In this document: one piece after another, positions 2,618 to 55,101 of the stretch
How the letters are laid out: each line of letters starts with the position of its first letter
Numbering within the stretch: the stretch's first letter is position 1
Sequence record: MN101225.1
DNA: 64,000 bases
Direction: 5' to 3' (one strand)
Source: Klebsiella phage KMI11
Translations under genes and position numbers: made by a program
The notes under the pieces: generated by a model
What the model was told of the DNA's origin: nothing
The model's database searches: none
The model's input: the letters and a program-made list of their open reading frames with translations, nothing else

Positions 2618-3412
2618 ATGCTAGATAAAGACTATATTAAAGAAATCCAGGCACTCGATAAAAAAGAAGCTAAAGACAAGCTCGACGAGTATGCCCAAAC
2701 TTTCGGTATTAAACTGAAAAAGACCCGTTCATTTGACAATATGGTTGCTGACTTAGAAAAAGAACTGGCTAAATTGGCTGATGAGCCTATGCCAGAAGAT
2801 AATGATGGGCTGTCAATTGCTGATTTAATCCAAGCAGATGATGAAATTGAGGGTAAAGCAGTATTTAAAGATGAAGCGTCTGATGAGGCAAAACTACTGT
2901 TTGACGCTCCAGTTAATGTTGGTATTAAAATTCATGATATTGACCCAGGTTTCTATAAAGAAACCCCTAAGGTAAATGACCCAGGGTTTGAAGTAAAAAC
3001 ACCTTCTATCAATGATAAAGGATTTTATGCTGAAGCTCCTATTGGAGACAGCGTTATTCATATAGATGATGAAGGACAAGTTACCAATATTCCGGTTAGT
3101 ATCACGGACCCCGAAGAATTTTTCAAAGCAATGGACAAAGTAGTTAAAATTGTTAAAACTGATGAAACCATTGAGCTTCCTAAAAACTTTAGTCCAAACA
3201 TGCAATTGCTAGGTAAGAACCCAGGATATATTACTCTTCCATGGTGGATTTACCAATGGATTAAAGATAACCCGGACTGGAAATCTCGGCCAACGTCGTT
3301 TGAACACCCATCAGCACACCAGACATTGTTTAGTTTAATCTATTACATCAAAAGAAACGGGTCTGTTATGATTCGTGAAACACGTAATTCTTCATTTGTA
3401 ACTTTAAAATAA
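2618..3412 (+). CDS. hoc-adjacent acidic protein, possibly Inh (prohead protease inhibitor) homolog
   Basis: ATG at 2618 after GAGG RBS (the track's 2420 start overlaps uvsW); acidic protein immediately upstream of hoc where T4 has inh; sequence identity to Inh not verifiable by eye. Confidence 0.4.
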   Translation: MLDKDYIKEIQALDKKEAKDKLDEYAQTFGIKLKKTRSFDNMVADLEKELAKLADEPMPEDNDGLSIADLIQADDEIEGKAVFKDEASDEAKLLFDAPVNVGIKIHDIDPGFYKETPKVNDPGFEVKTPSINDKGFYAEAPIGDSVIHIDDEGQVTNIPVSITDPEEFFKAMDKVVKIVKTDETIELPKNFSPNMQLLGKNPGYITLPWWIYQWIKDNPDWKSRPTSFEHPSAHQTLFSLIYYIKRNGSVMIRETRNSSFVTLK

Positions 3413-42022: not shown

Positions 42023-42109
42023 GGGGAGTTAGACCGTAGGGGTAGCGGGACAGACTGTAAATCTGTTGCTCAAAAGGCTCGAGTGGTTCGACTCCATTAC
42101 TCCCCACCA
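42023..42109 (+). tRNA. tRNA-Tyr(GUA), class II (long variable arm)
   Basis: acceptor GGGGAGU/ACUCCCC, anticodon stem ACAGA/UCUGU loop cuGUAaa, T-arm GGTTCGACT, A73, encoded CCA. Confidence 0.85.
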
Positions 42110-42115
42110 AATTTA

Positions 42116-42192
42116 GGGATACTAGCTCAGTTGGTTAGAGCACCGGACTTTTAATCCGGGTGTCCGAAGTTCGAGTCTTCGGTGTCCCACCA
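42116..42192 (+). tRNA. tRNA-Lys(UUU)
   Basis: acceptor GGGAUAC/GUGUCCC, anticodon stem CCGGA/UCCGG loop cuUUUaa, T-arm CGAAG-TTCGAGT-CTTCG, CCA. Confidence 0.85.
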
Positions 42193-42197
42193 AATTC

Positions 42198-42282
42198 GGG
42201 TCGTTGGCTGAGAGGGTAAGCGACGGACTGTTAATCCGTGTCAGAAATGACTAGGCAGGTTCGATACCTGCACGGCCCGCCA
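42198..42282 (+). tRNA. tRNA-Asn(GUU) with unusual 15-nt variable arm and 3-bp D stem
   Basis: anticodon arm ACGGA-cuGUUaa-UCCGU is identical to the E. coli tRNA-Asn anticodon arm; acceptor GGGUCGU/ACGGCCC, G73, CCA; extra GUCA-GAAA-UGAC hairpin in the variable region. Confidence 0.7.
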
Positions 42283-42536
42283 AATGAAGAAGTCAGAAGA
42301 CGTTCTGATAAAATCGTCGGCACAGAAATCCCTGGCATGGCGTTTGTATTAAGGAGTATGATTTCATCCTGCTTAATGCTTGTTCATGTTATAATTTCTT
42401 ACGGCGTTGAAAGTTCGCTTTCAGGGATACATCTTAGAGCAGAGTGTTAAACAAGATTCATCTGGTACCAAGGTGATGAGAGCCCTGTTCCCCTTTGCTT
42501 CGGCATCGTGCCAGAGTATCTCTGAAAGCGAATTAT

Positions 42537-42613
42537 GGACCTATAGTTTAGTTGGTTAAAATACTCCCCTGTCACGGGAGAGAGCACGGGTTCGATCCCC
42601 GTTAGGTCCGCCA
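42537..42613 (+). tRNA. tRNA-Asp(GUC)
   Basis: acceptor GGACCUA/UAGGUCC, anticodon stem CUCCC/GGGAG loop cuGUCac, G73, CCA. Confidence 0.85.
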
Positions 42614-42774
42614 AATAAGAACGTGGCAGTTCTTGAAGATGAGTTTGAGTCCTATAAGATAATGCCGAGGACGAAGCTGTTTGTTCCCACGGAATAAGCT
42701 CTATATTCGTAAGATTATATCTTTAGCGTGTTCTACATCAAGCTACTTGTTAGTACTTCAAGAACCCGGATAAA

Positions 42775-42851
42775 TGCGGAGTAACTTCAGTTGGTAGAAT
42801 GTTGGGCTCATATCCCGACACGCGCAGGTTCGAGTCCTGCCTCCGCCTCCA
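42775..42851 (+). tRNA. tRNA(CAU), initiator-like (fMet-type features)
   Basis: anticodon loop cuCAUau on a stem with three consecutive G:C pairs (GGG/CCC) next to the loop, as in initiator tRNA; 1:72 is a U.C mismatch; T-arm GCAGG-TTCGAGT-CCTGC; CCA. Confidence 0.65.
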
Positions 42852-42856
42852 ACAAT

Positions 42857-42931
42857 TGGACTATAGACAAGCGGTTAAGTCACCGGCCTTTGACTCCGGT
42901 ATCTCTGGTTCGAATCCAGATAGTCCAGCCA
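42857..42931 (+). tRNA. tRNA-Gln(UUG)
   Basis: U1-A72, CAAGCGGUAAG D-loop and CACCGG as in E. coli tRNA-Gln; anticodon loop cuUUGac; G73, CCA. Confidence 0.85.
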
Positions 42932-43026
42932 AATTAATATTCATTCAACGCGTCTACAGGGGTTGAACTGATCATTCTTCTCTTAATTTCGTATGAAGTC
43001 CTCATGATGGATGGAGTGAATATTGA

Positions 43027-43103
43027 TGTGGCCGTAGTTCAGTTGGTAGAACTCAGCATTGTGATTGCTGTCGTCGACGGTTCAAATCCGTCCGGTCACC
43101 CCA
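43027..43103 (+). tRNA. tRNA-His(GUG)
   Basis: anticodon stem CAGCA/UGCUG loop uuGUGau; acceptor GUGGCCG/CGGUCAC, C73, CCA; no encoded G-1. Confidence 0.8.
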
Positions 43104-43199
43104 ACAATGAAGGAATGGTGGAAAAATACACGGCCCGCAAAACGCTGTGGCTGTCGCTAAGCGAATTGTGTCTATATGACACTTCCTTCACCAAATACT

Positions 43200-43284
43200 G
43201 GAGAGTAGCGCTAGTGGTAGCAAACCGGACTTGAAATCCGGGCCATCGGAAACGGTGAGGGTTCAACTCCTTTACTCTCCGCCA
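43200..43284 (+). tRNA. tRNA-Ser(UGA), class II
   Basis: acceptor GGAGAGU/ACUCUCC, anticodon stem CCGGA/UCCGG loop cuUGAaa, long variable arm, G73, CCA. Confidence 0.85.
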
Positions 43285-43350
43285 AATTTATGAAAGTTAA
43301 ACGCTGCCCATAGCAGTGGTACATCAACAATTAGATGATTAGCTTTCCAT

Positions 43351-43426
43351 GGGAGTATAGCTCATTTGGTAGAGCTCTCGACCGATAATCGAGCGGTGAC
43401 TGGTTCGAGTCCAGTTACTCCCACCA
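43351..43426 (+). tRNA. tRNA-Ile(GAU)
   Basis: acceptor GGGAGUA/UACUCCC, anticodon stem CUCGA/UCGAG loop ccGAUaa (C33), A73, CCA. Confidence 0.8.
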
Positions 43427-43432
43427 AATAAC

Positions 43433-43507
43433 AGGTTCTTAGTATAACGGCTATTATGCTGGGCTCCAAACCCAGTGATGAGGGTTCGATTCCTTCAGGG
43501 CCTGCCA
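43433..43507 (+). tRNA. tRNA-Trp(CCA)
   Basis: acceptor AGGUUCU/AGGGCCU, anticodon stem CUGGG/CCCAG loop cuCCAaa, G73, CCA. Confidence 0.8.
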
Positions 43508-43512
43508 AATTT

Positions 43513-43587
43513 GCATCCATCGTATAACGGCTATTATAGGTGACTTCCACTCACTTGATAAGGGTTCGATTCCCTTTGGATGCTCCA
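43513..43587 (+). tRNA. tRNA-Gly(UCC)
   Basis: acceptor GCAUCCA/UGGAUGC, anticodon loop cuUCCac, T-arm AAGGG-TTCGATT-CCCTT, U73, CCA. Confidence 0.85.
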
Positions 43588-43592
43588 AATTA

Positions 43593-43669
43593 CTCCGTAT
43601 AGCTCAGTCTGGTAGAGCGTTCCATTTGGGATGGAAAGGTCGAATGTTCGAGTCATTCTATGGAGACCA
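43593..43669 (+). tRNA. tRNA-Pro(UGG)
   Basis: anticodon stem UUCCA/UGGAA loop uuUGGga; T-arm GAATG-TTCGAGT-CATTC; A73, CCA. Confidence 0.85.
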
Positions 43670-43675
43670 AATTAA

Positions 43676-43819
43676 CGGTATGACACAATACAAGATGGCG
43701 TAAGCTGAGTAGCGGGATTGCAGTCTCGTTCAGATATGCTATCGAGTATGGGTGATATATTAAACACATGGATTCTGCAAAGTCCATGTGACTCGGTTCG
43801 AGGCCGGGCATACCGTCCA
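43676..43819 (+). ncRNA. tRNA-like stable RNA candidate (about 144 nt; perfect acceptor stem, T-arm and CCA but oversized core)
   Basis: 5' CGGUAUG pairs 7/7 with 3' CAUACCG, followed by U73 and CCA; T-arm CUCGG-TTCGAGG-CCGGG; 7-bp hairpin ACATGGA/TCCATGT immediately 5' of the T stem; starts 6 nt after tRNA-Pro, matching the cluster spacing. Confidence 0.5.
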
Positions 43820-43844
43820 ATCACTTGCCATTGAGAAATATATT

Positions 43845-43997
43845 ATGAAATATTACGGCTTCAAAACATCCCATTTCGGGAAAGCATATCGTACAGAAAA
43901 CATTGATAGACGTCGAGCATATTACGAATCACTGCATAAAGCAGGACGTTCTCGTGCACGACAAGAAGGCCAAAAACAAGCGAAGGAAATAGAATGA
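43845..43997 (+). CDS. small basic protein
   Basis: ATG at 43845 (MKYYGFK...) chosen because the track ORF's earlier portion overlaps the tRNA-like element; basic C-terminus. Confidence 0.35.
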   Translation: MKYYGFKTSHFGKAYRTENIDRRRAYYESLHKAGRSRARQEGQKQAKEIE

Positions 43998-44359
43998 ATA
44001 TTTTTATTGGTGTTGCAAATAACGTAAATGCTATTACGGTGAAATTACAATGGAATCGTCCAACTAATTTTGCTTTAGGATTATGTAAATCTGAACGTGA
44101 TTTAATGCTTCATGCTGATTTTGCATACACTTTTGATGAACGCAAAGGTATGTGGGTCTGGATTAAATGCAGATACGAAGCATTAATCAAATATGAGTAC
44201 TTCAGTGAGCGTGATATTCAAGAAGTTATTGCTTATCATTCTGGCTGTAAAGTAAGTAAACTGCGTCAAGTTATTCCGTTTACTAATGCTTCAAATGTAG
44301 AAGAGCTAATTACTGATTTTAAACGAATTTATCAGGCGAAATATGATGAAAGATTCTAA
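43994..44359 (+). CDS. hypothetical protein
   Basis: 121-aa ORF, ATGA coupling. Confidence 0.45.
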   Translation: MNIFIGVANNVNAITVKLQWNRPTNFALGLCKSERDLMLHADFAYTFDERKGMWVWIKCRYEALIKYEYFSERDIQEVIAYHSGCKVSKLRQVIPFTNASNVEELITDFKRIYQAKYDERF

Positions 44360-44576
44360 AGGTCGAGACGTACAAGTTGGTGATATCGTTTTCTACGGAG
44401 AACGTACATATAATAAAGGTGGTCGTGGTTCTATGCGCTGCGGTCGTATTACAGATATTGCTTCAGGATTGGCTAAAGTAGATAACGACTACGTTGCAAT
44501 GCGAAGCAAATCATTCGTTAAGGTTTCTCCTATGTTCGCAACAATGTGGGAAAACGGAACGATTTTCGAGATTTAA
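44343..44576 (+). CDS. hypothetical protein
   Basis: 77-aa ORF. Confidence 0.4.
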   Translation: MMKDSKGRDVQVGDIVFYGERTYNKGGRGSMRCGRITDIASGLAKVDNDYVAMRSKSFVKVSPMFATMWENGTIFEI

Positions 44577-44630
44577 TGCTACAAGAATAACCTGTTATTA
44601 TTACTACATCAAAACAAACAAGGAAAAAGA

Positions 44631-44855
44631 ATGAAACGTATCGCACTGATTGTTGACCAAGAAGCTATGTTCGCTGCTACCGGTAAATTTCATCCGGTGA
44701 GTAAATTTGTTGCTCGCAGCGAGAAAATCGTTGGTCTGGTAGAAACTGTCGCAGGTGATGTAATTGTTTCTATTAAAACGTCTGAAATTTCTCCAGTAGT
44801 TAAAGTAGCAGTTGAAAATGACTTCTGGGAAGTAGCTGATTTTATGTGTGAGTAA
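44631..44855 (+). CDS. hypothetical protein
   Basis: 74-aa ORF with AAGGAAAAAGA RBS; followed by a terminator. Confidence 0.45.
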   Translation: MKRIALIVDQEAMFAATGKFHPVSKFVARSEKIVGLVETVAGDVIVSIKTSEISPVVKVAVENDFWEVADFMCE

Positions 44856-44888
44856 TTCTGCCTAGCAGGTGGATAAGCCCGACAAGGC

Positions 44889-44908
44889 GCCCTCTTCGGA
44901 GGGCTTTT
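44889..44908 (+). terminator. rho-independent terminator GCCCUC-UUCG-GAGGGC-UUUU
   Basis: 6-bp GC stem, UUCG loop, T4 run. Confidence 0.75.
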
Positions 44909-44933
44909 ATAAAAGTCATAAGATTTCTATAAA

Positions 44934-45010
44934 GGCCCTGTAGCTCAATTGGTAGAGCGTTCCCCTCATAAGGGATTGGTTGCATGTTCGAGTCTTTGCC
45001 AGGGTCACCA
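44934..45010 (+). tRNA. tRNA(CAU), elongator Met or Ile2(k2C)-type
   Basis: acceptor GGCCCUG/CAGGGUC fully paired (G1-C72), anticodon stem UUCCC/GGGAU loop cuCAUaa, TTCGAGTC T-loop (8-nt loop or imperfect stem), A73, CCA. Confidence 0.65.
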
Positions 45011-45029
45011 AATTAATGAGGAAAATATT

Positions 45030-45230
45030 ATGATGCGATTAGTTAAAGTAGTTGTAGAAGAATCTGAATACATGGGCGATAGCCGAATGATTGAAGAATT
45101 CGTTACTGTTGAGGCAGATTCTGAATCTGAAATCGCTGATAAAGTTTATCGTCATTTTGATAATATGTCTGATTCGTATGGCACAATGTATAACATTTAT
45201 CGTTTAGATGTAATAGTACATATCAACTGA
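45030..45230 (+). CDS. hypothetical acidic protein
   Basis: ATG at 45030 after GAGG; the track's upstream extension overlaps the tRNA. Confidence 0.45.
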   Translation: MMRLVKVVVEESEYMGDSRMIEEFVTVEADSESEIADKVYRHFDNMSDSYGTMYNIYRLDVIVHIN

Positions 45231-45240
45231 GGAAATTGAA

Positions 45241-45798
45241 ATGCATATTAAATTTGGACAAGTTATTCCTAAAGGCTTAGCAATGGCAATTACCACTTGG
45301 GAAAACGATGCTGATCGGTATTCTACCCAAATGGTTTATGGCTTAGAAAAAGAAGAGATTAATCAAGTAATTCACGTTCTTGAATGGTTCTCTTCTAATG
45401 GTCGGCGTGGTGAATACCTTGGAAATAATGATTACAACCATGAAGCAATTCTTGAAAAGCTTCATACTGAACAGAAGTATGTAACTCCTGAATTTTCCAA
45501 GAAATTCTTTGGCGTTGATGTTCCTGCATATGATTGTTCAGACGAAGAGTTTGATGCTTATTTAGATAACCACTATTCTTGTTCAAATGAAGTTATGTAT
45601 GCTATTCAGGCTTGGTTGGGTAATCCAATTGAATATGATTATGATTTCATGCGAGTATTTGAGAAAGTTGAAATCTTTGATATTAAAGAAGAAATTCGTA
45701 TTCCTGATGCTCCGGTTGCATTCCATATTGGAATTACGTATAAGCAGAAAGAAAGCCCATTAAAAGTTGATTGGTTGAAATACGTGAAGGAAAAGTAA
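45241..45798 (+). CDS. hypothetical protein
   Basis: 185-aa ORF. Confidence 0.5.
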   Translation: MHIKFGQVIPKGLAMAITTWENDADRYSTQMVYGLEKEEINQVIHVLEWFSSNGRRGEYLGNNDYNHEAILEKLHTEQKYVTPEFSKKFFGVDVPAYDCSDEEFDAYLDNHYSCSNEVMYAIQAWLGNPIEYDYDFMRVFEKVEIFDIKEEIRIPDAPVAFHIGITYKQKESPLKVDWLKYVKEK

Positions 45799-46248
45799 AT
45801 GGATATTGGTTCAGGTAGTTCATATCCATCATGTGCTTTGAGCAACTTTGCTCCTCATAAATTTATCTATGATGGCGTAGAATGTGCATCAATGGAGGGA
45901 TTCTTGCAGTCCCTCAAATTTTCTTCGCCTGAAATGCAAGCACATGTATGTACATTAGTTGGTAAATCGGCTAAGTTCAAAGGTAAAAAGAAACGGTGGT
46001 GGCCAACTCAAACACTTTATTGGAAAGGCGTGCCAATCCATCGTGCTTCAGAAGCGTATCAGAATTTACTGACAGGAGCATACGATGCACTTAGTAAAAA
46101 TGAAGGATTCAGAAAAGCTTTGGCTGCTACCCGGAATGCTACGCTCACTCACAGTATGGGCAAAAACAAAATTTCTGAAACGATTTTGACTGAACGCGAA
46201 TTCTGTAATCAACTTTATCGTTTGAGAAATGCTATAAATAATCAGTAA
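45799..46248 (+). CDS. NADAR/YbiA-like (DUF1768) domain protein, putative ADP-ribose N-glycosidase
   Basis: 149 aa; N-terminal block LSNFAPHKFIYDGVECASMEGFLQSLKF matches the NADAR core (LSNF..PF....F.S.EH.FQA.KF); translationally coupled to the upstream ORF. Confidence 0.5.
   Translation: MDIGSGSSYPSCALSNFAPHKFIYDGVECASMEGFLQSLKFSSPEMQAHVCTLVGKSAKFKGKKKRWWPTQTLYWKGVPIHRASEAYQNLLTGAYDALSKNEGFRKALAATRNATLTHSMGKNKISETILTEREFCNQLYRLRNAINNQ
46233..46240 (+). promoter_or_regulatory. late promoter TATAAATA upstream of the second tRNA subcluster
   Basis: exact TATAAATA 20 nt before the tRNA-like element at 46260. Confidence 0.55.
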
Positions 46249-46259
46249 TATAATTATCT

Positions 46260-46387
46260 TGTTCAGTGTTGAAATCGGTAGACATGGTGACGGACACCTT
46301 TTGAGCTCGCATATTGCATCATATGCTGGCGACGGTGGTAAATCGCTGACGGAATCAGTCGTGCAGGTTCGAGTCCTGCCTGAACAA
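46260..46387 (+). ncRNA. tRNA-like stable RNA candidate (about 128 nt) fused 3 nt upstream of tRNA-Arg
   Basis: 5' UGUUCAG pairs 7/7 with 3' CUGAACA; canonical T-arm GCAGG-TTCGAGT-CCTGC; D-loop-like AAUCGGUAGAC; about 55 nt of extra core including a GCATAT-TGCATC-ATATGC hairpin; no clean anticodon arm found. Confidence 0.5.
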
Positions 46388-46390
46388 TCT

Positions 46391-46467
46391 CGGGGCATAG
46401 CTCAGTTGGATAGAGCAGCGGACTTCTAATCCGCAGGTCGAAGGTTCGAATCCTTCTGCCTCGACCA
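46391..46467 (+). tRNA. tRNA-Arg(UCU)
   Basis: acceptor CGGGGCA/UGCCUCG, anticodon stem GCGGA/UCCGC loop cuUCUaa, T-arm GAAGG-TTCGAAT-CCTTC, A73, CCA. Confidence 0.85.
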
Positions 46468-46471
46468 TTTC

Positions 46472-46556
46472 GCATCGATGGTGGAACTGGTATACACAGG
46501 AGACTTAAAATCTCCCGCCGCAAGGATTGAGGGTTCGAATCCCTCTCGGTGCACCA
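46472..46556 (+). tRNA. tRNA-Leu(UAA), class II
   Basis: acceptor GCAUCGA/UCGGUGC, anticodon stem GGAGA/UCUCC loop cuUAAaa, long variable arm, A73, CCA. Confidence 0.85.
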
Positions 46557-46566
46557 AATTAAGACC

Positions 46567-46652
46567 CCGGGAATAGTTGCTTAAACTTAGTGAGGAATTC
46601 AACGGCAGATACGTCTGTGCAACTACATAAGGTTCGAATCCTTATTTCCGTC
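46567..46652 (+). ncRNA. tRNA-like element (86 nt; T-arm and 6/7 acceptor pairs, noncanonical core) abutting tRNA-Thr
   Basis: T-arm TAAGG-TTCGAAT-CCTTA; 5' CCGGGAA versus 3' UUUCCGU (C1.U72 mismatch); internal long-range AGTTGC...GCAACT helix and GCAGA-TACG-TCTGT hairpin; no CCA. Confidence 0.4.
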
Positions 46653-46656
46653 TTAA

Positions 46657-46732
46657 GCCGATTTAGCTCAGCTGGTAGAGCGCTTCACTTGTAATGAAGA
46701 TGTCGCGGGTTCGACTCCTGCAATCGGCACCA
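46657..46732 (+). tRNA. tRNA-Thr(UGU)
   Basis: acceptor GCCGAUU/AAUCGGC, anticodon stem CUUCA/UGAAG loop cuUGUaa, T-arm GCGGG-TTCGACT-CCTGC, A73, CCA. Confidence 0.85.
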
Positions 46733-49863: not shown

Positions 49864-50186
49864 TTAAAACTTGTTATCGTGGAATGATTAAAGACGATGA
49901 GCCTGGGTATTTTTTCCTATTTCTGCTTATCTGGTTTTCATTTTCAGCTTTTGTTGGATTTGGGACTTTTTGGGGTTTTTACTTCTTTTCACCAATCTTT
50001 GGAGATACTTTGTTCTATTTAGGTTGGATGTCAGGTGTTGGAACTTGGTTTGCAATGCTTGCTCGTTGGTTGCAATTCGTTTCCCAGCGACAGCGGGGTG
50101 TATTTGATAAGCCCAAAGTAAAGAAAGAAAAATCTAAAGATGATTCTCGTAATGAAACTTTATCCTGGATTAAGGAGATGAAATAA
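49860..50186 (+). CDS. small membrane protein (2 predicted TM helices)
   Basis: 108 aa; FFLFLLIWFSFSAFVGFGTFWGFYFF and LGWMSGVGTWFAML; basic C-terminal tail. Confidence 0.5.
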   Translation: MIKTCYRGMIKDDEPGYFFLFLLIWFSFSAFVGFGTFWGFYFFSPIFGDTLFYLGWMSGVGTWFAMLARWLQFVSQRQRGVFDKPKVKKEKSKDDSRNETLSWIKEMK

Positions 50187-50422
50187 TGGCTGTTGCAGTG
50201 CATGTAAAATTTGAAAACGGTGATACTCGCCTTCTGTGTTACAGTGATAACGAATCACTGAGCGGTATCGAGATTTCACTTAAAGAAGAACTGCTTGGTA
50301 TTAATGGACCTATCTGTGATTTCTCAGTAGAGGGTTCATATAATTGTGATGGTGTACTAGAGTCTATGGTCTATACTGCCATGGAAGATATTCTTGAAGA
50401 AAGTTGGAATGAATGCCAATGA
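50186..50422 (+). CDS. hypothetical protein
   Basis: 78-aa acidic ORF, ATAATG coupling. Confidence 0.4.
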   Translation: MAVAVHVKFENGDTRLLCYSDNESLSGIEISLKEELLGINGPICDFSVEGSYNCDGVLESMVYTAMEDILEESWNECQ

Positions 50423-50865
50423 AAGAGCTCAGTGCAGGAATCTTATTCTTTACCGATGACAAACGGCTTTTCATGGGTCGTATGACAAATACATATGTCA
50501 AGGGCAGAGGCTCTAGATGGGATATTCCGAAAGGTCATGTTGAGCCTGGTGAAACACCGAAAGAAGCTGCTATTCGTGAATGCCAGGAAGAAACAGGGTT
50601 TACTGGGTTTGACCAGGACTTCTTATATGACCTCGGACGACACGATTATGACAGCAATAAGGATATTCATTTGTTTGGATATATGCTCCCTGTGAACCCA
50701 GAAGTGTTTAAGAATTGCTGTTGCACAGCTTACCATAAAGATGAAAATGGAATTTCTTTCCCGGAAACCGACGCATTTGCTTTAATTAAACCTTCTCAAT
50801 GGAAATATGTGATGGGACCAAGTTTGTATAAAATCATGACACAAATGTATAGCACAGCTCAGTGA
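50413..50865 (+). CDS. nudE: Nudix hydrolase
   Basis: Nudix box GHVEPGETPKEAAIRECQEETGF (G.5E.7REUxEExGU); adjacent to e as T4 nudE (e.1). Confidence 0.8.
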   Translation: MPMKELSAGILFFTDDKRLFMGRMTNTYVKGRGSRWDIPKGHVEPGETPKEAAIRECQEETGFTGFDQDFLYDLGRHDYDSNKDIHLFGYMLPVNPEVFKNCCCTAYHKDENGISFPETDAFALIKPSQWKYVMGPSLYKIMTQMYSTAQ

Positions 50866-50872
50866 GGTTATT

Positions 50873-51181
50873 ATGGAAGAAGCCATTGAATTAGGCATTC
50901 CACACATTTATAAGCATGAGCTACGATTTATTCACGATGGAAAATGGGTTAGCATATTTCATCCTAGAGATAAAATGTCGCGTATACTAATGAAATCACG
51001 ATACGTCTTCGGTGACGGCGAGTATACAAAATCAGCATATTACATAGCAGAACAGCTATATCCGGGATTTAGTGAATTGCCCGAGGACGATAAAAGAGAT
51101 TATGTATGGTGGAAAGATAAATGGACGCCGTATGAAAATTGCAGCATTGACATGTTTATAGCCAAGTGTAGGGCCAAATAA
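50873..51181 (+). CDS. hypothetical protein
   Basis: 102-aa ORF between nudE and e. Confidence 0.45.
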   Translation: MEEAIELGIPHIYKHELRFIHDGKWVSIFHPRDKMSRILMKSRYVFGDGEYTKSAYYIAEQLYPGFSELPEDDKRDYVWWKDKWTPYENCSIDMFIAKCRAK

Positions 51182-51210
51182 ATACTCCTATAATTTAATA
51201 GGAGGTCCTT

Positions 51211-51705
51211 ATGGATATTTTTGGCATGCTGCGTATTGATGAAGGATACGATAGCAAAATTTATAAAGATACCGAAGGGTATTGGACCATTGGTATTGGC
51301 CACTTACTGACTAAAGACCCGTCAAAATCTTTGGCTATTTCTAACCTGGACAAGCTAGTAGGTCGTTCTACAGGTGGACAAATTACTCAGGCTGAGGCAG
51401 AAGTAATTTTTGCCAAAGATGTTGAGAAGGCAATTAAAGGTATTGTTGCTAATGCTACATTAAACCCGGTATATAATGTATTAGATGATGTTCGTAGAGC
51501 TGCTCTGGTTAACATGGTATTCCAAATGGGTGTGTCTGGTGTAGCCGGGTTCCCAGCTTCAATGAAGTTATTACTCGCTAAAAAGTGGGAAGCTGCTGCC
51601 AAGGAACTTGCAAATTCACGTTGGTATCGTCAGACGCCAAATCGTGCTCGTCGTGTAATTGAAACAATGCGGACCGGAACTTGGTCTGCTTATCAAGGAA
51701 AATAA
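51211..51705 (+). CDS. e: endolysin (T4 lysozyme, muramidase)
   Basis: 164 aa; M.IF.MLRIDEG...[21 protein letters not shown]...NMVFQMG..GVAGF...W..A...LA.SRWY.QTPNRA.RVI.T.RTGTW.AY closely matches recalled T4 e. Confidence 0.95.
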
Positions 51706-52185
51706 ATGAAAACTTATCAAGAATTTTTAAATGAATCCCGTTTAGCAACAGTTGGCGTAATGACTGAGTCTGTTGGAAGTAATCTTCTGAAATTTAAAAA
51801 AGGTCAGAAGATGACCGCCACGTTAGAAGATGGTACAGAAATTGAAATGGACGTTGTTGGATATAACTACGTAGTAGACGGCAAGTTATATAATAAGAGC
51901 CATGCCAAGTTTGATTCATTTGATGATTTCACCTCTTCTATTGAAGATGAGTCTTCTCGCAAAGCAGTAGCATCTGGCGATGCACGCTCCTTAATGGCAC
52001 TTGGTCATGAGCGTATTAAGTCTAAGCAGAACAAACCTGGCGAAGATAACTTTGCATTAGTAGGTTATCAGTCTGGCAAAACTTCTAACGGTTACCAACG
52101 TACTGTCACTATGTACATGCGTAATGGTAAAATTGCATTCGTAAACGATCGCGGCGCTATTCGTTACGCTAAATCAATTAAGTAG
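51706..52185 (+). CDS. internal protein with capsid-targeting sequence (novel IP)
   Basis: N-terminus MKTYQEFLNE matches the T4 IP CTS consensus MKTYQEFIAE with an L-x-E gp21 cleavage site; 159 aa, Lys-rich; starts on the e stop codon. Confidence 0.75.
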   Translation: MKTYQEFLNESRLATVGVMTESVGSNLLKFKKGQKMTATLEDGTEIEMDVVGYNYVVDGKLYNKSHAKFDSFDDFTSSIEDESSRKAVASGDARSLMALGHERIKSKQNKPGEDNFALVGYQSGKTSNGYQRTVTMYMRNGKIAFVNDRGAIRYAKSIK

Positions 52186-52240
52186 TTTACATTGAGACGG
52201 TAATGTGGTATAGTAGCCTTATTAAATGAAGGCTACTATG
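52185..52240 (+). promoter_or_regulatory. early promoter cassette GTTTAC-N18-TATAGT with GTAGCC...GGCTAC stem-loop over the -10
   Basis: GTTTAC 52185-90, TATAGT 52209-14; 6-bp stem flanking TTATTAAATGAA loop. Confidence 0.55.
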
Positions 52241-52266
52241 ACACGCATTAACTTAAAGGATATAAA

Positions 52267-52839
52267 ATGAAAACCTATAAAGAATTTATCACCGAAGCTT
52301 CTGTAGGAAAGGTCCAAGGCATTAATAAAGATGAGTGGACCTACCGAGGAAACGGTTTTGACCCTAAAACAGCTCCTATTGAGCGGTATTTAGCTACAAA
52401 GGCTTCCGACTTTAAAGCCTTCGCCTGGGAAGGACTTCGCTGGCGTAACGATCTAAATATTGAAGCCGATGGGCTTAAATTTGGTCATATTCAAGATGTT
52501 GTTGCTAGTAACTTAGACGCAGCTTTTGTTAAAGCCGATGCAGACCTTCGCCGTTGGAATTTAAAACTATTCTCTAAACAGAAAGGCCCGGTATTTGTAC
52601 CTAAAGCAGGTAAATGGGTTATTGATAATAAATTGGCTAAGGCTGTCAACTTTGCAGGCCTCGAATTCGCCAAGCATAAGGCAGCCTGGAAAAATCTTGA
52701 CGCCATGGCTTTCCGTAAAGAATTCGCCGAGGTTATGGCTAAAGGCGGATTTAAGGCAGATTTAGATACCACTAAAGGTACGTTTAAAGACGCTAATGTT
52801 CAATACGCTTACGCCGTTGCTAATGCAGCCCGTAATTAA
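52267..52839 (+). CDS. ipIII: internal protein III-like (CTS-bearing)
   Basis: 190 aa; MKTYKEFITEA CTS; LRWRNDLN, RRWNLKLFSKQKGP.FVPKAGKWVIDNKLAKAVNFAGLEFAKHK and C-terminal YAYAVANAAR match what I recall of T4 IPIII. Confidence 0.75.
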   Translation: MKTYKEFITEASVGKVQGINKDEWTYRGNGFDPKTAPIERYLATKASDFKAFAWEGLRWRNDLNIEADGLKFGHIQDVVASNLDAAFVKADADLRRWNLKLFSKQKGPVFVPKAGKWVIDNKLAKAVNFAGLEFAKHKAAWKNLDAMAFRKEFAEVMAKGGFKADLDTTKGTFKDANVQYAYAVANAARN

Positions 52840-52980
52840 AACTAATTCCTAATAAAGCTAAACACGACCTCTCCTCATGAACGTCGAGTCCTCTGAGTGA
52901 AGTAGCTTTCCCTACCTGTAATAAGGTCGAGCGCAAGTGCGGTAAGGGGTTTACATAGTGTGTCGATGGATTAAACATGT

Positions 52981-52996
52981 GCCAAGGAATGGCCCC
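52981..52996 (+). repeat. 16-nt direct repeat GCCAAGGAATGGCCCC, copy 1 (upstream of the third IP gene)
   Basis: exact 16-mer repeated at 53383-53398; the two copies bracket the IP gene 53032-53337. Confidence 0.8.
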
Positions 52997-53031
52997 ATTT
53001 AATTTAAAACTTTACCATTCTAGGATATAAA

Positions 53032-53337
53032 ATGAAAACTTATAAAGAATTTATCACCGAAGCAAAAGCACCAAAAGTATTCCAGATCTGTACCCAAGGA
53101 AATTTGGATAAAGAATTCGTCGATGCTATTGTGTCAAATCTTCGTAAGGAAGGCGTGCAAGTAGATTCAGTTGAATGGACCAAAGGCAGTGATAATTTTA
53201 TTATTACTGTATCTAAAGGTTCTTTGGCTAAAATTAAAAAGTCTTGGGGTGTAATGCGTGCTTATGATTTAAGCCATGACGGCGATCAAGCCAAAGTACG
53301 AATGAATACCCTTAAGGGAGGCCGGGAATACGTTTAG
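53032..53337 (+). CDS. internal protein with CTS (novel small IP)
   Basis: 101 aa; MKTYKEFITEA, the same first 11 residues (about 33 nt near-identical DNA) as the IP at 52267. Confidence 0.75.
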   Translation: MKTYKEFITEAKAPKVFQICTQGNLDKEFVDAIVSNLRKEGVQVDSVEWTKGSDNFIITVSKGSLAKIKKSWGVMRAYDLSHDGDQAKVRMNTLKGGREYV

Positions 53338-53382
53338 ACTTATTGCCTATACTTATCAAAATATTACACGGACTAAGCACGC

Positions 53383-53398
53383 GCCAAGGAATGGCCCC
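53383..53398 (+). repeat. 16-nt direct repeat GCCAAGGAATGGCCCC, copy 2
   Basis: exact match to 52981-52996. Confidence 0.8.
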
Positions 53399-53415
53399 TT
53401 TAACTGGAATCTAAA

Positions 53416-53949
53416 ATGAAACACTTAACTCCCATTTATTTGACCCTGATGCATGCTTTCAGAGACGCTGCAGACAGACGATTGAATAATCCCAACTACA
53501 GTTTTTATGAACCGTCTTGCCTTATGCGAGAGTACGGTACCCTTCGTCTAGACGGTGGAAGACAAACCGGAAAGACTGCAGCCTTATGTCAATTCGCTAC
53601 CGATTGGTTGCTTGAAGATGGTTCGGTTATAATCTTATCTACTCGATACACACAATCATCTGAATTGATGGAAGGTATTCTACGAGAATATAATTCATCG
53701 CATTTAATTAATAAATTACCGGCTAACGAGATAGCTAAATCAATTGTTCCGATGACAATCAGGGAATTTCTATCCAATGATTCCTCTTACAAGTTTAGGG
53801 GAAGAAAGTTTGGAAGAGCATTAATTATCATTGAAGAACCAATGAAAGTTCCCGATATGATGAAGTTCTATGATATGTACCAGGAAGCTATCAGATGGTC
53901 TATGCCTAATGATACCTTACCTTTATTTTTCGTGATAGGAATGCAATGA
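53416..53949 (+). CDS. P-loop NTPase (Walker A/B) protein
   Basis: 177 aa; Walker A DGGRQTGKTAA; Walker B-like ALIIIEEP. Confidence 0.5.
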   Translation: MKHLTPIYLTLMHAFRDAADRRLNNPNYSFYEPSCLMREYGTLRLDGGRQTGKTAALCQFATDWLLEDGSVIILSTRYTQSSELMEGILREYNSSHLINKLPANEIAKSIVPMTIREFLSNDSSYKFRGRKFGRALIIIEEPMKVPDMMKFYDMYQEAIRWSMPNDTLPLFFVIGMQ

Positions 53950-54257
53950 TGACACAGACAGAAATTGTTGATATGATTACAGTAATGGAAAATACAGGAT
54001 TTGCCGATATGAAGCAATTAATAACAATGGTTACGGCTGGCAACCTGCTTGAGTACAAGCGCTACAAGTTTCTGTCTGGTCCGTTTAAAGGTGCAGAATT
54101 CATTTCTAACGCTCCTAACACGAAGTGGATGAATCGCTATCCTAATTTTAGAATTGAGTTTATATCCGGTAAGCTCAAAGGCGTGATTAGTTCAAGCTTA
54201 ATCACATATGACCAACGCATTCAAGAGAAAACAATGCAATGGCTGAAATTGTTATAA
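53946..54257 (+). CDS. hypothetical protein
   Basis: 103 aa, ATGA coupled to the P-loop protein. Confidence 0.45.
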   Translation: MMTQTEIVDMITVMENTGFADMKQLITMVTAGNLLEYKRYKFLSGPFKGAEFISNAPNTKWMNRYPNFRIEFISGKLKGVISSSLITYDQRIQEKTMQWLKLL

Positions 54258-54730
54258 AGTGTCCTCCACATTTAGTTGAAAGCTTCTGCGATTGGTTCAG
54301 TAATTCTGGCGAGCAAGATTTCTATGAAGCCCATCAGAATGGAACTTGGAATGAAACCACAAAACAGTGGGAAGAAGCTACAACGTATATAGGCACTCGC
54401 GGATATGGAGTTGACGAGCCTATTGAAATTGTAGAGTACGATAAAGAAACTGATGAAGAAATACTTTATGCTAATGATACCAGAGAACGTTTATGGCGAG
54501 AATCTGAATTAGAAGCAGAAGTTATTCGTCTTAAAGAAGAATTAAAAGGACCAACGGGTTTTGCTACGTGGAAAGACGCTGCTATTTCTGAACGTTTAGC
54601 ACGGGTAAAATTGATGCCAGAGGGTAAAATCTCGTACTTACAAGCTGCATCCAAGTTCCATTCTACTGAGTGGAATACTATGGACGTAATTACCGCATAC
54701 ATGCATGGTTGGAATAAAGAATCTAATTAA
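54239..54730 (+). CDS. hypothetical protein
   Basis: 163-aa ORF. Confidence 0.45.
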
Positions 54731-54738
54731 GAGGAAAT

Positions 54739-55101
54739 ATGAAAGCATATCAAATTCTTGAAGGTGAACTTAAAGGCACCATTTACATCGAAGATGGTGA
54801 TGACGCACGAGTAATCGTTTCAAAAGTTCTTAAAGAAGATACTATTACGGATGCTGAAACTTTTTATGGCTACAAGGCTCGTGAAGTAGAAATTGAATAC
54901 CAGCCAACGGTAAAAATTGAAGGCGGTCAGCACCTGAACGTTAACGTGCTGCGTCGCGAAACCCTGCTGGACGCGGTTGAGCATCCGGAAAAATATCCGC
55001 AGCTGACCATTCGTGTTTCTGGCTACGCGGTACGCTTCAACTCCCTGACGTCGGAACAGCAGCGCGACGTTATCGCTCGTACTTTCACAGAGGCACTATA
55101 A
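54739..55101 (+). CDS. grcA: GrcA/YfiD-like autonomous glycyl-radical cofactor protein (chimeric composition)
   Basis: C-terminal 60 aa ([58 protein letters not shown]) nearly identical to E. coli GrcA with the glycyl-radical RVSGYAV motif; DNA composition switches from AT-rich to GC-rich host-like codons around 54905. Confidence 0.8.

Follow-up and report, generated by a model that had tools for sequence, protein, structure and literature searches.

What kind of locus encodes, in three consecutive genes, predicted small proteins that are unrelated to one another, places all of them behind a common leader, and has the same 16 nucleotides (nt) on either side of the last gene? The question is raised by Klebsiella phage KMI11 (sequence record MN101225.1), of which one strand of 64,000 nt was analyzed in the 5' to 3' direction (hereinafter, the window). 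An earlier note on this DNA had described the genes and the repeats and proposed that they form an internal-protein (IP) locus organized as exchangeable cassettes. The analysis confirms the features described there and, at the resolution of individual junctions, supports the cassette interpretation. We read the region as the Jiaodavirus version of the T-even ipII/ipIII locus, located between e and vs.8, in which the IP genes are modules that are exchanged by recombination at repeated segments, and put the probability of this reading at roughly 0.85. The evidence that carries it consists of alternative payloads and of presence or absence of genes at exact repeat junctions, together with high similarity across genera that is limited to the cassettes.

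Organization and identity of the locus

The 3.2 kb around the locus are 99.4% identical to Klebsiella phage JD18 (Straboviridae, Tevenvirinae, Jiaodavirus), and 382 phage records in total match this 3.2-kb query region; by its sequence, the window is a JD18-like Jiaodavirus. The order on the plus strand is a nudE-like gene, an open reading frame (ORF), the lysozyme gene e, three leader-bearing ORFs, a gene for a protein of 177 amino acids (aa) and, further on, grcA-like and regB. The counterpart order in T4, e - ipIII - ipII - denV - vs.8 ... vs.6 - regB, agrees with that in the window, and because the gene order equals that of T4, we take this to be the ipII/ipIII locus as it occurs in a relative of T4, with the gene for 177 aa as its vs.8 homologue. 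The genes of the locus and its two anchors are as follows.

51211-51705, plus strand: lysozyme gene e (Pfam Phage_lysozyme, E=2.4e-14; 63% aa identity to T4 e; T4-like position), the conserved left anchor.
51706-52185, plus strand: IP-A, 159 aa, leader MKTYQEFLNES, with the ATG abutting the stop codon of e; PF24183 (DUF7412), E=4.9e-94; phrog_3155, 'internal virion protein'.
52267-52839, plus strand: IP-B, 190 aa, the IpIII orthologue, leader MKTYKEFITEA; phrog_5341; 88% identical to T4 IpIII in both aa and nt sequence.
53032-53337, plus strand: IP-C, 101 aa, leader MKTYKEFITEA; phrog_2667, E=1.9e-39 ('internal head protein'); the payload between the two 16-mers.
53416-53949, plus strand: vs.8 homologue, 177 aa (phrog_1488; 37% aa identity to T4 Vs.8; synteny), the conserved right anchor.

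The three consecutive leader genes that had been noticed earlier are present, with starts at 51706, 52267 and 53032, and the assignment of the middle one to IPIII agrees with its sequence, 88% identical to T4 IpIII at the aa level. The other two proteins, of 159 and 101 aa, were candidate novel anti-defence proteins in the earlier note, but they do not represent new families: they match existing ones (phrog_3155/DUF7412 and phrog_2667, respectively) that are already annotated as internal proteins. One homologue in the IP-A family bears the source name 'lp4 protein' ('Ip4'-like), and among the 18 homologues of IP-C, one is called 'putative internal head protein'. All three proteins thus combine homology to named internal proteins (IpIII in the case of IP-B) with the position of one of the two IP loci known in T-even phages. 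The likeness of IP-A and IP-C to T4 Ip1-3 is confined to the leader.

Across the 64-kb window, the capsid-targeting leader was found on these three ORFs only. Tyr4, Phe7, Leu/Ile8 and Glu10 are common to all three versions (MKTYQEFLNE, MKTYKEFITE and MKTYKEFITE); in T4, genetics assigned positions 4 and 7 of the ~10-residue leader to targeting and positions 8 and 10 (L/I-x-E) to processing by gp21 (PMC9026906). From the leader, we infer that the three proteins would be built into the prohead core, trimmed by gp21 after Glu10 and injected with the DNA.

Repeated segments between the genes

The near-identical 5' DNA and upstream context that two of the genes had been reported to share correspond to a 42-nt direct repeat, AGGATATAAAATGAAAAC(C/T)TATAAAGAATTTATCACCGAAGC, which spans the ribosome-binding site (RBS) and the leader of the second and third genes (52257-52298 and 53022-53063; 41 of the 42 positions, or 98%, identical). 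The counterpart in the first gene, at 51696-51737, is only 76% identical. The exact 16-mer described as lying about 35 nt upstream of the third IP gene and again downstream of it, GCCAAGGAATGGCCCC, occurs at 52981-52996, 35 nt before the ATG of the third gene, and at 53383-53398, 45 nt past the stop codon of that gene and 17 nt ahead of the next ATG. This repeat lengthens to 32 nt at 84% identity (52968-52999 versus 53370-53401), and the left-hand differences are all transitions. The repeated segments on which the argument depends are the following.

52238-52298, plus strand: 61-nt unit (denV remnant, RBS and leader), in single copy; in JIPh_Kp122 and 17-11, a copy lies on each side of the IpII cassette.
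52981-52996, plus strand: first copy of the 16-mer, a GCCA-AGGAA-UGGC hairpin followed by CCC; the 3' end of a conserved element (see below) and the left edge of the IP-C slot.
53022-53063, plus strand: second copy of the 42-nt RBS-plus-leader repeat, 98% identical to 52257-52298.
53370-53401, plus strand: 32 nt that repeat the 3' end of the element in diverged form (84% identity with 52968-52999); this second copy holds the second 16-mer and forms the right edge of the IP-C slot.

We give practically no credence to the explanation that these repeats are chance matches in an AT-rich genome. One exact 16-mer pair in 64 kb is in itself not very improbable (about 0.5 pairs are expected in random sequence by our estimate), but the two copies are 402 base pairs (bp) apart, both are intergenic, and they flank a single gene. 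With up to three mismatches allowed, the 16-mer has 3 matches versus 0.17 expected, and a count of 3 was reached in 0 of 100 shuffles. Above all, the junctions recur in many independent genomes, so that chance is refuted by the comparative data presented next.

Slot contents in sister phages

In phage Hyena_ER38, the IP-C gene is absent and the single 16-mer is preceded by the sequence that lies left of copy 1 and followed by that which lies right of copy 2; a gap of ~402 bp as in Hyena_ER38 is seen in about ten further isolates. Slot architectures were mapped in ten loci by tblastn and motif search. In this map, the 16-mer slot holds IP-C in JD18 and Kp122, a 73%-identical IP-C allele in pKp20 and L052, and IpII, along with a second, chimeric copy of the conserved element, in pzk-kv4, and is empty in Hyena_ER38, 17-11 and 15882-3-1. 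Between IP-A and IpIII lies a second slot, which contains nothing in the window, IpII in Kp122 and 17-11, and an intact denV in pKp20. The IpII insert of JIPh_Kp122 and 17-11 comprises 392 bp, with a 61-nt direct repeat at either end (58/61 positions identical) that includes the first denV codons, the RBS and the leader; in locus L002, these copies lie at 2739-2799 and 3131-3191, 392 bp apart, and the window keeps exactly one copy. The IpII of the sister phages is 95% identical to T4 IpII. On alignment, these junctions are those expected of crossovers within direct repeats.

The comparison of related IP loci, which had been suggested as a check on the cassette proposal, hence shows payloads that differ between shared edges (IP-C, the 73% allele, IpII or none); the set of IP genes varies among relatives, and the 16-mer is present in other genomes. 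The boundaries themselves have to be redrawn. The earlier placement paired the leader with the 16-mer as opposite boundaries, and no cassette so bounded was found; each insertion or deletion lies between two copies of one and the same repeat.

A direct repeat around a single gene and its clean presence or absence would also be left by a small mobile element, in which case IP-C would have arrived by site-specific or transposition-like insertion and the 16-mer would be a target-site duplication. We consider this origin very improbable, given that no recombinase, transposase or homing endonuclease was found within or beside the 402-bp unit, that the repeat continues into 32 nt of diverged homology and does not end sharply, that genomes and genera lacking the insert have the same site as part of a longer conserved element, and that the second copy in pzk-kv4 is a whole chimeric element. 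Furthermore, IP-C units flanked by the 16-mer at unrelated sites were found in none of the 47 IMG/VR contigs that contain the 16-mer.

Two individual genomes deserve mention. The second element copy of pzk-kv4 (L134 2233-2436) is a mosaic with a T4-type 5' half and a 3' stem arm of the L073 type, a combination that disrupts both the closing stem and the ACCU/AGGU hairpin; its sequence suggests recombination within the element. An apparent chimera of the IpII N-terminus and the IP-C C-terminus, located in the IP-C slot of ValerieMcCarty05 (OR354874.1; L137 3365-3667), was discarded on account of a run of N at the join; it probably arose in scaffolding, possibly because the lysate was polymorphic at the slot.

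Transfer across genera and diversity of internal proteins

The similarity to T4 is concentrated in one gene of the locus: IpIII is 88% identical at the aa level, versus 63% for e, 53% for nudE, 57% for regB and 37% for vs.8, and the block of DNA similarity with T4 extends over 52253-52859, starting 14 bases before the IpIII ATG. In a megablast search, the IpIII gene alone aligns to many coliphage records at 87-90%. Phage HMGUkp2 is taken to represent another genus because its e and vs.8 are 65% and 44% identical, respectively; here, an 86% block runs from 52247 to ~53630, and IpIII and IP-C are both 95% identical at the aa level. Since the T4 and HMGUkp2 blocks start at 52247-52253, the RBS/leader segment is a recurrent left edge of transferred blocks.

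In ~35 IMG/VR loci anchored on lysozyme e, the interval from e to vs.8 contains one to four leader-bearing genes and denV, in variable order. The mature parts of the proteins cluster into 14 families, about a dozen of which occupy this interval. In this clustering, T4 IpIII is in the family of IP-B and T4 IpII in that of the Kp122 insert, IP-C falls in a family of 99-104 aa that is common outside Tequatrovirus, and IP-A belongs to a small family of 157-159 aa.

The conserved noncoding element containing the 16-mer

The first 16-mer is the last block, that is, the 3' end, of an intergenic element of ~140 nt, and the second 16-mer of the window belongs to a diverged copy of just the final ~32 nt of this element.

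52850-52996, plus strand: conserved noncoding element, ~140 nt (candidate structured RNA), near-invariant across genera; it precedes vs.8 in T4-type phages.
52903-52960, plus strand: three-way-junction core (covariance model R1, 78.5 bits, E=9e-24), in single copy in the window.

With a 156-nt query, the element was located in 885 phage records including T4, mostly without an annotated feature at that place; it is also found at L132 4433-4583 (T4), L124 8440-8760 and L118 540-830. In T4 and T4-type phages, it occupies the space between vs.8 and the preceding denV (or IP genes), and in distant T4-type phages the 16-mer, with at most 2 mismatches, is positioned 15-35 nt upstream of the vs.8 start. 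The conservation of the element exceeds that of its neighboring proteins (37-65% identity for the flanking proteins in distant genera). The core is also found in FV3/slur12-type phages (135-139 kb; one record is labelled Vequintavirinae), upstream of tRNA clusters. In the 47 IMG/VR contigs with the 16-mer, the surroundings are mostly unrelated GC-rich genes, and the true context is present in T4-like contigs only.

RNAalifold and pair counting suggest a closing stem around ACCU-GUAAUA-AGGU and CGAGC-N4-GYGCG, that is, a three-way junction. In 44 distinct sequences, 92.7% of the cells are paired, a value equalled in 0 of 500 shuffles, and the closing pair occurs as 6 pair types. A G-U pair in 32 of the 44 sequences argues that the structure is specific to the gene-sense strand. 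The support for a structured RNA is limited by the invariance of the two inner hairpins and by strong covariation at one pair only. The element has no unusual thermodynamic stability (z = +1.2), no Rfam match over it was obtained at E<=10 for the window or at E<=5 for the T4 and Vequintavirinae-type loci, and no similarity to T4 rnaC or rnaD was found. The GUAAUA hexaloop of the core is identical to the loop of 23S rRNA helix 44. A BLAST search of complete E. coli genomes with the element returned nothing, so it appears to be neither a detectable mimic of a host sequence nor a prophage feature; 8 matches to a 19-mer in a scan of bacterial genome contigs were rejected as about the number expected by chance, none having the downstream GCGGTAA.

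The possibility that the element is coding, which was considered because the T4 RefSeq vs.8 ORF spans it, was rejected: ORF calls elsewhere put the 16-mer in three frames, and frame shifts and stop codons are encountered when close T4 relatives are read across the element. The T4 RefSeq vs.8 is 219 aa long (L138 2254-2913; NC_000866 64253-64912) and starts at an upstream ATG, and the relatives begin ~40 codons later. Given this later start and the interruption of the extension in close T4 relatives, sequence comparison suggests that the annotated start of T4 vs.8 is probably too far upstream. In some genomes, a minus-strand 'hypothetical protein' of ~50 aa is annotated over the element (window 52820-52978; L003 3316-3474; L135 1725-1874); this ORF call is probably spurious, since the element is conserved at the nucleotide level.

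We tentatively propose, at somewhat less than even odds, that the 16-mer would be the 3' hairpin of an undescribed structured RNA of ~140 nt that is present in hundreds of T4-type phages, and near tRNAs in Vequintavirinae, and that also acts as a linker for cassette exchange between genera. The conserved element is possibly the sole new item at this locus. Should it be a functional RNA, it would be an unannotated feature of T4 itself and could outweigh the cassette finding.

The retention of the 16-mer, with at most 2 mismatches, directly upstream of vs.8 in distant genera in which the flanking proteins are 37-65% identical invites a different explanation of the repeat, namely that it is a functional cis-element (an RNA hairpin or a protein site) that is needed upstream of the following gene and not a mechanistic cassette boundary, the changes in gene content having arisen elsewhere or illegitimately. 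Its place at the 3' end of a conserved element with covariation, the divergence of the sequence to the left of copy 2 next to an unchanged 16-mer, and the HMGUkp2 similarity block that passes the 16-mer into vs.8 are all consistent with this explanation. We nevertheless regard it as unlikely, albeit worth serious consideration: the genomes with an empty slot have exactly one 16-mer together with the outer flanks, as from a crossover inside the repeat, the same two edges are common to four payload states, and T4 is known to delete between much shorter repeats (PMC9391042). Moreover, a cis-acting role is compatible with recombination at the repeats, with function explaining the persistence of the repeat and recombination explaining the junctions. 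The earlier proposal that the repeats are traces of cassette swapping therefore stands with respect to the junctions, which do lie at repeats, and needs amendment with respect to the 16-mer, which is the end of a conserved element that recombination uses.

The spacer between IP-A and IpIII

The space between the first two IP genes is filled by a promoter-like site, a hairpin and what is left of denV.

52186-52214, plus strand: early-type sigma-70 promoter-like site, TTTACA-17-TATAGT with TG (10/12 matches), the best promoter-like site of the region.
52205-52244, plus strand: inverted repeat (hairpin) with 16-nt arms, 88% complementary, and an 8-nt loop; it overlaps the -10 hexamer and the ATG of the denV remnant.
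52238-52255, plus strand: denV remnant, the first six codons (ATGACACGCATTAACTTA = MTRINL), identified by alignment with pKp20, in which denV is intact at the same spot.

The promoter-like site agrees with the consensus TTTACW-N17-TAYWAT of the T4/PST promoter early stem-loop (PeSL) elements (consensus from PMC4122927) and is the single good early-type promoter in 50000-54500; no terminator-like site on the plus strand was found in the region scan. Compared with pKp20, the denV deletion junction coincides with the short homology AACYTAA, and the remnant is fused to the IpIII RBS.

Predicted functions of the internal proteins

T4 Ip1, Ip2 and Ip3 each inhibit a distinct type IV restriction enzyme of the GmrSD type (PMC12373910), T4 IpIII is active in the cytoplasm without its leader (PMC9391042), and Jiaodaviruses are predicted to have glucosylated hydroxymethylcytosine, the substrate of GmrSD-type enzymes (PMC9960720). 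IP-B is orthologous to one of these T4 inhibitors (IpIII, 88% aa identity). Given the activity of T4 Ip1-3/IpIII and the predicted glucosylated hydroxymethylcytosine, IP-B probably inhibits a GmrSD-type enzyme as well; for IP-A and IP-C, an anti-defence role is plausible by analogy. Sequence searches of the PDB with the three IPs gave nothing below E=0.5.

In T4, the IPs are abundant, basic and in contact with DNA, and mutation of IpIII leads to defects in head assembly (PMC9026906, PMC3012670). The three proteins could conceivably be only structural, DNA-associated components of the head core whose genes are dispensable and turn over by neutral drift; in favor of this, no known inhibitor was found to resemble them in fold or sequence. 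Such a purely structural role appears improbable to us in the light of the specific GmrSD targets of three T4 IPs and of the cytoplasmic action of leaderless IpIII (PMC12373910, PMC9391042). Furthermore, IpIII is 88% identical across genera while its neighbors diverge, which points to selection and transfer and not to drift.

Proposed mechanism and points against it

We propose that the genes of this locus are separate modules, each of which opens with an RBS-plus-leader segment, and that the spacers between the modules (the early promoter, hairpin and denV remnant in one case and the structured element ending in the 16-mer in the other) would be reusable regulatory units. The repeated segments would serve as crossover points, given that short homologies suffice for efficient recombination in T4-type phages. 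A crossover within a single genome would delete or duplicate the gene between two repeat copies, with one copy remaining after deletion; between co-infecting relatives, crossovers would exchange one payload for another. Selection on the element may hold the 16-mers identical, and recombination would exploit them. IpIII would block a GmrSD-type enzyme in this phage too, IP-A and IP-C may likewise be injected counter-defence proteins, and the diversity of host defences could be the driver of the IP turnover.

Several points weigh against this reading. The junctions fit gain or loss alike. The exact identity of the 16-mers is probably kept by selection on the element and not by recent recombination. 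The right end of the HMGUkp2 block lies within vs.8 (~53630), off the 16-mer, so that the repeats appear to be frequent but not exclusive crossover points. The T4 late-promoter consensus TATAAATA is absent from 50000-54500, and prohead assembly needs late expression of the IPs. The AlphaFold2 model of IP-C (mean predicted local distance difference test score, pLDDT, 72.6; beta-alpha-beta-beta-alpha-beta fold; best PDB match E=3.9e-3) resembles generic ACT/ferredoxin-like folds only, and that of IP-A is poor (pLDDT 58.8) and unfit for a fold search. Finally, packaging, cleavage, injection and anti-defence activity of the three proteins are predictions from sequence.

If the proposed mechanism is correct, the IP locus determines the injected counter-defence proteins of a therapeutic Klebsiella phage. 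Because sister isolates that are >95% identical differ by whole IP genes, their host ranges on strains with type IV restriction may differ. With the exact crossover repeats known, the IP repertoire would be simple to predict, to detect by PCR and to engineer.

Neighboring genes

The vs.8 homologue (53416-53949) has a weak match to the P-loop N-terminal domain of the terminase large subunit (PF03237, E=8e-6; phrog_2, E=1.5e-6), and in several deposited genomes (Roth series), the annotation of the vs.8 region includes a 'terminase large subunit'. This label is probably misleading, as the product would be a small NTPase-like protein. The grcA-like gene (T4 vs.6; 54739-55101) is 82% identical to that of T4, far exceeding its neighbors (vs.8, 37%; regB, 57%). 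It forms a second island of high similarity and may likewise have been transferred, or be under strong constraint. Sixteen tRNA genes are clustered at 42023-46732 on the plus strand, ~5 kb upstream of the IP locus.

Comparison with known systems

The T-even IP loci are polymorphic (Repoila et al., 1994, EMBO J 13:4181, as related in PMC4122927, PMC3012670 and PMC12373910), and the 1994 work, according to PMC4122927, proposed shuffling without detailing the mechanism. As far as these later accounts describe the T-even loci, the locus analyzed here resembles them in the order e - IP genes - denV - vs.8, in the common leader on unrelated proteins and in the variation of the number, order and identity of the IPs, and differs from them in the Klebsiella host and the Jiaodavirus affiliation and in the resolution of the junctions (16-mer/32-nt and 61-nt repeats).

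PeSL cassettes are excised between flanking modules, which leaves one chimeric module (Arbiol et al., 2010, PMC2839356), and this logic has been explicitly tied to the 1994 observations on IP loci (Comeau et al., 2014, PMC4122927). The present locus is similar in that variable small genes lie between repeated intergenic modules and relatives differ as a gene with two modules versus one module. The cassette variation that characterizes PeSLs is seen in Hyena_ER38, 17-11 and 15882-3-1 versus JD18 and in the chimeric second copy of pzk-kv4, and the TTTACA-N17-TATAGT promoter-like site followed by a hairpin at 52186-52244 may likewise be PeSL-like. Unlike in PeSLs, the repeats are partly coding (the leader), and the repeat of the IP-C slot ends a long cross-genus element with a three-way-junction core instead of being a GGGG-loop-CCCC stem with a promoter; of the PeSL promoter, TTTACA is present in this element, with a weak -10 in the window (TAAACA) and a better one (AATTAT) in the alignment of other genera.

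T4 is subject to deletion and amplification mediated by microhomology; in its laboratory evolution, deletions, some of which remove ipIII, occur between microhomologies of 6-10 bp and leave one copy (PMC9391042), so repeats of 16-61 nt should be ample for recombination. Here, too, the product keeps one copy of the flanking repeat, with the differences that the repeats are longer (16 nt exact; 32 or 61 nt near-exact) and that the products are natural isolates. With the GmrSD inhibitors Ip1-3 of T4 (Silas et al., 2025, PMC12373910; Srikant et al., 2022, PMC9391042), the link is direct for IP-B, the IpIII orthologue, and for the IpII of the sister phages, at 95% to T4; IP-A and IP-C share the leader alone, and the Klebsiella locus is known here from its sequence. 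The analogy with integron cassettes (PMC2839356) extends to single-gene units that are gained and lost at repeated boundary sequences; unlike in integrons, there is no integrase and no attC-type site, and exchange would proceed via the general recombination of the phage. Taken together, these comparisons mark the locus as a clear but ordinary, well-resolved example of a long-known T-even phenomenon and not as a new system: it provides a junction-level example for the model proposed in 1994 and 2010 and leaves that model unchanged.

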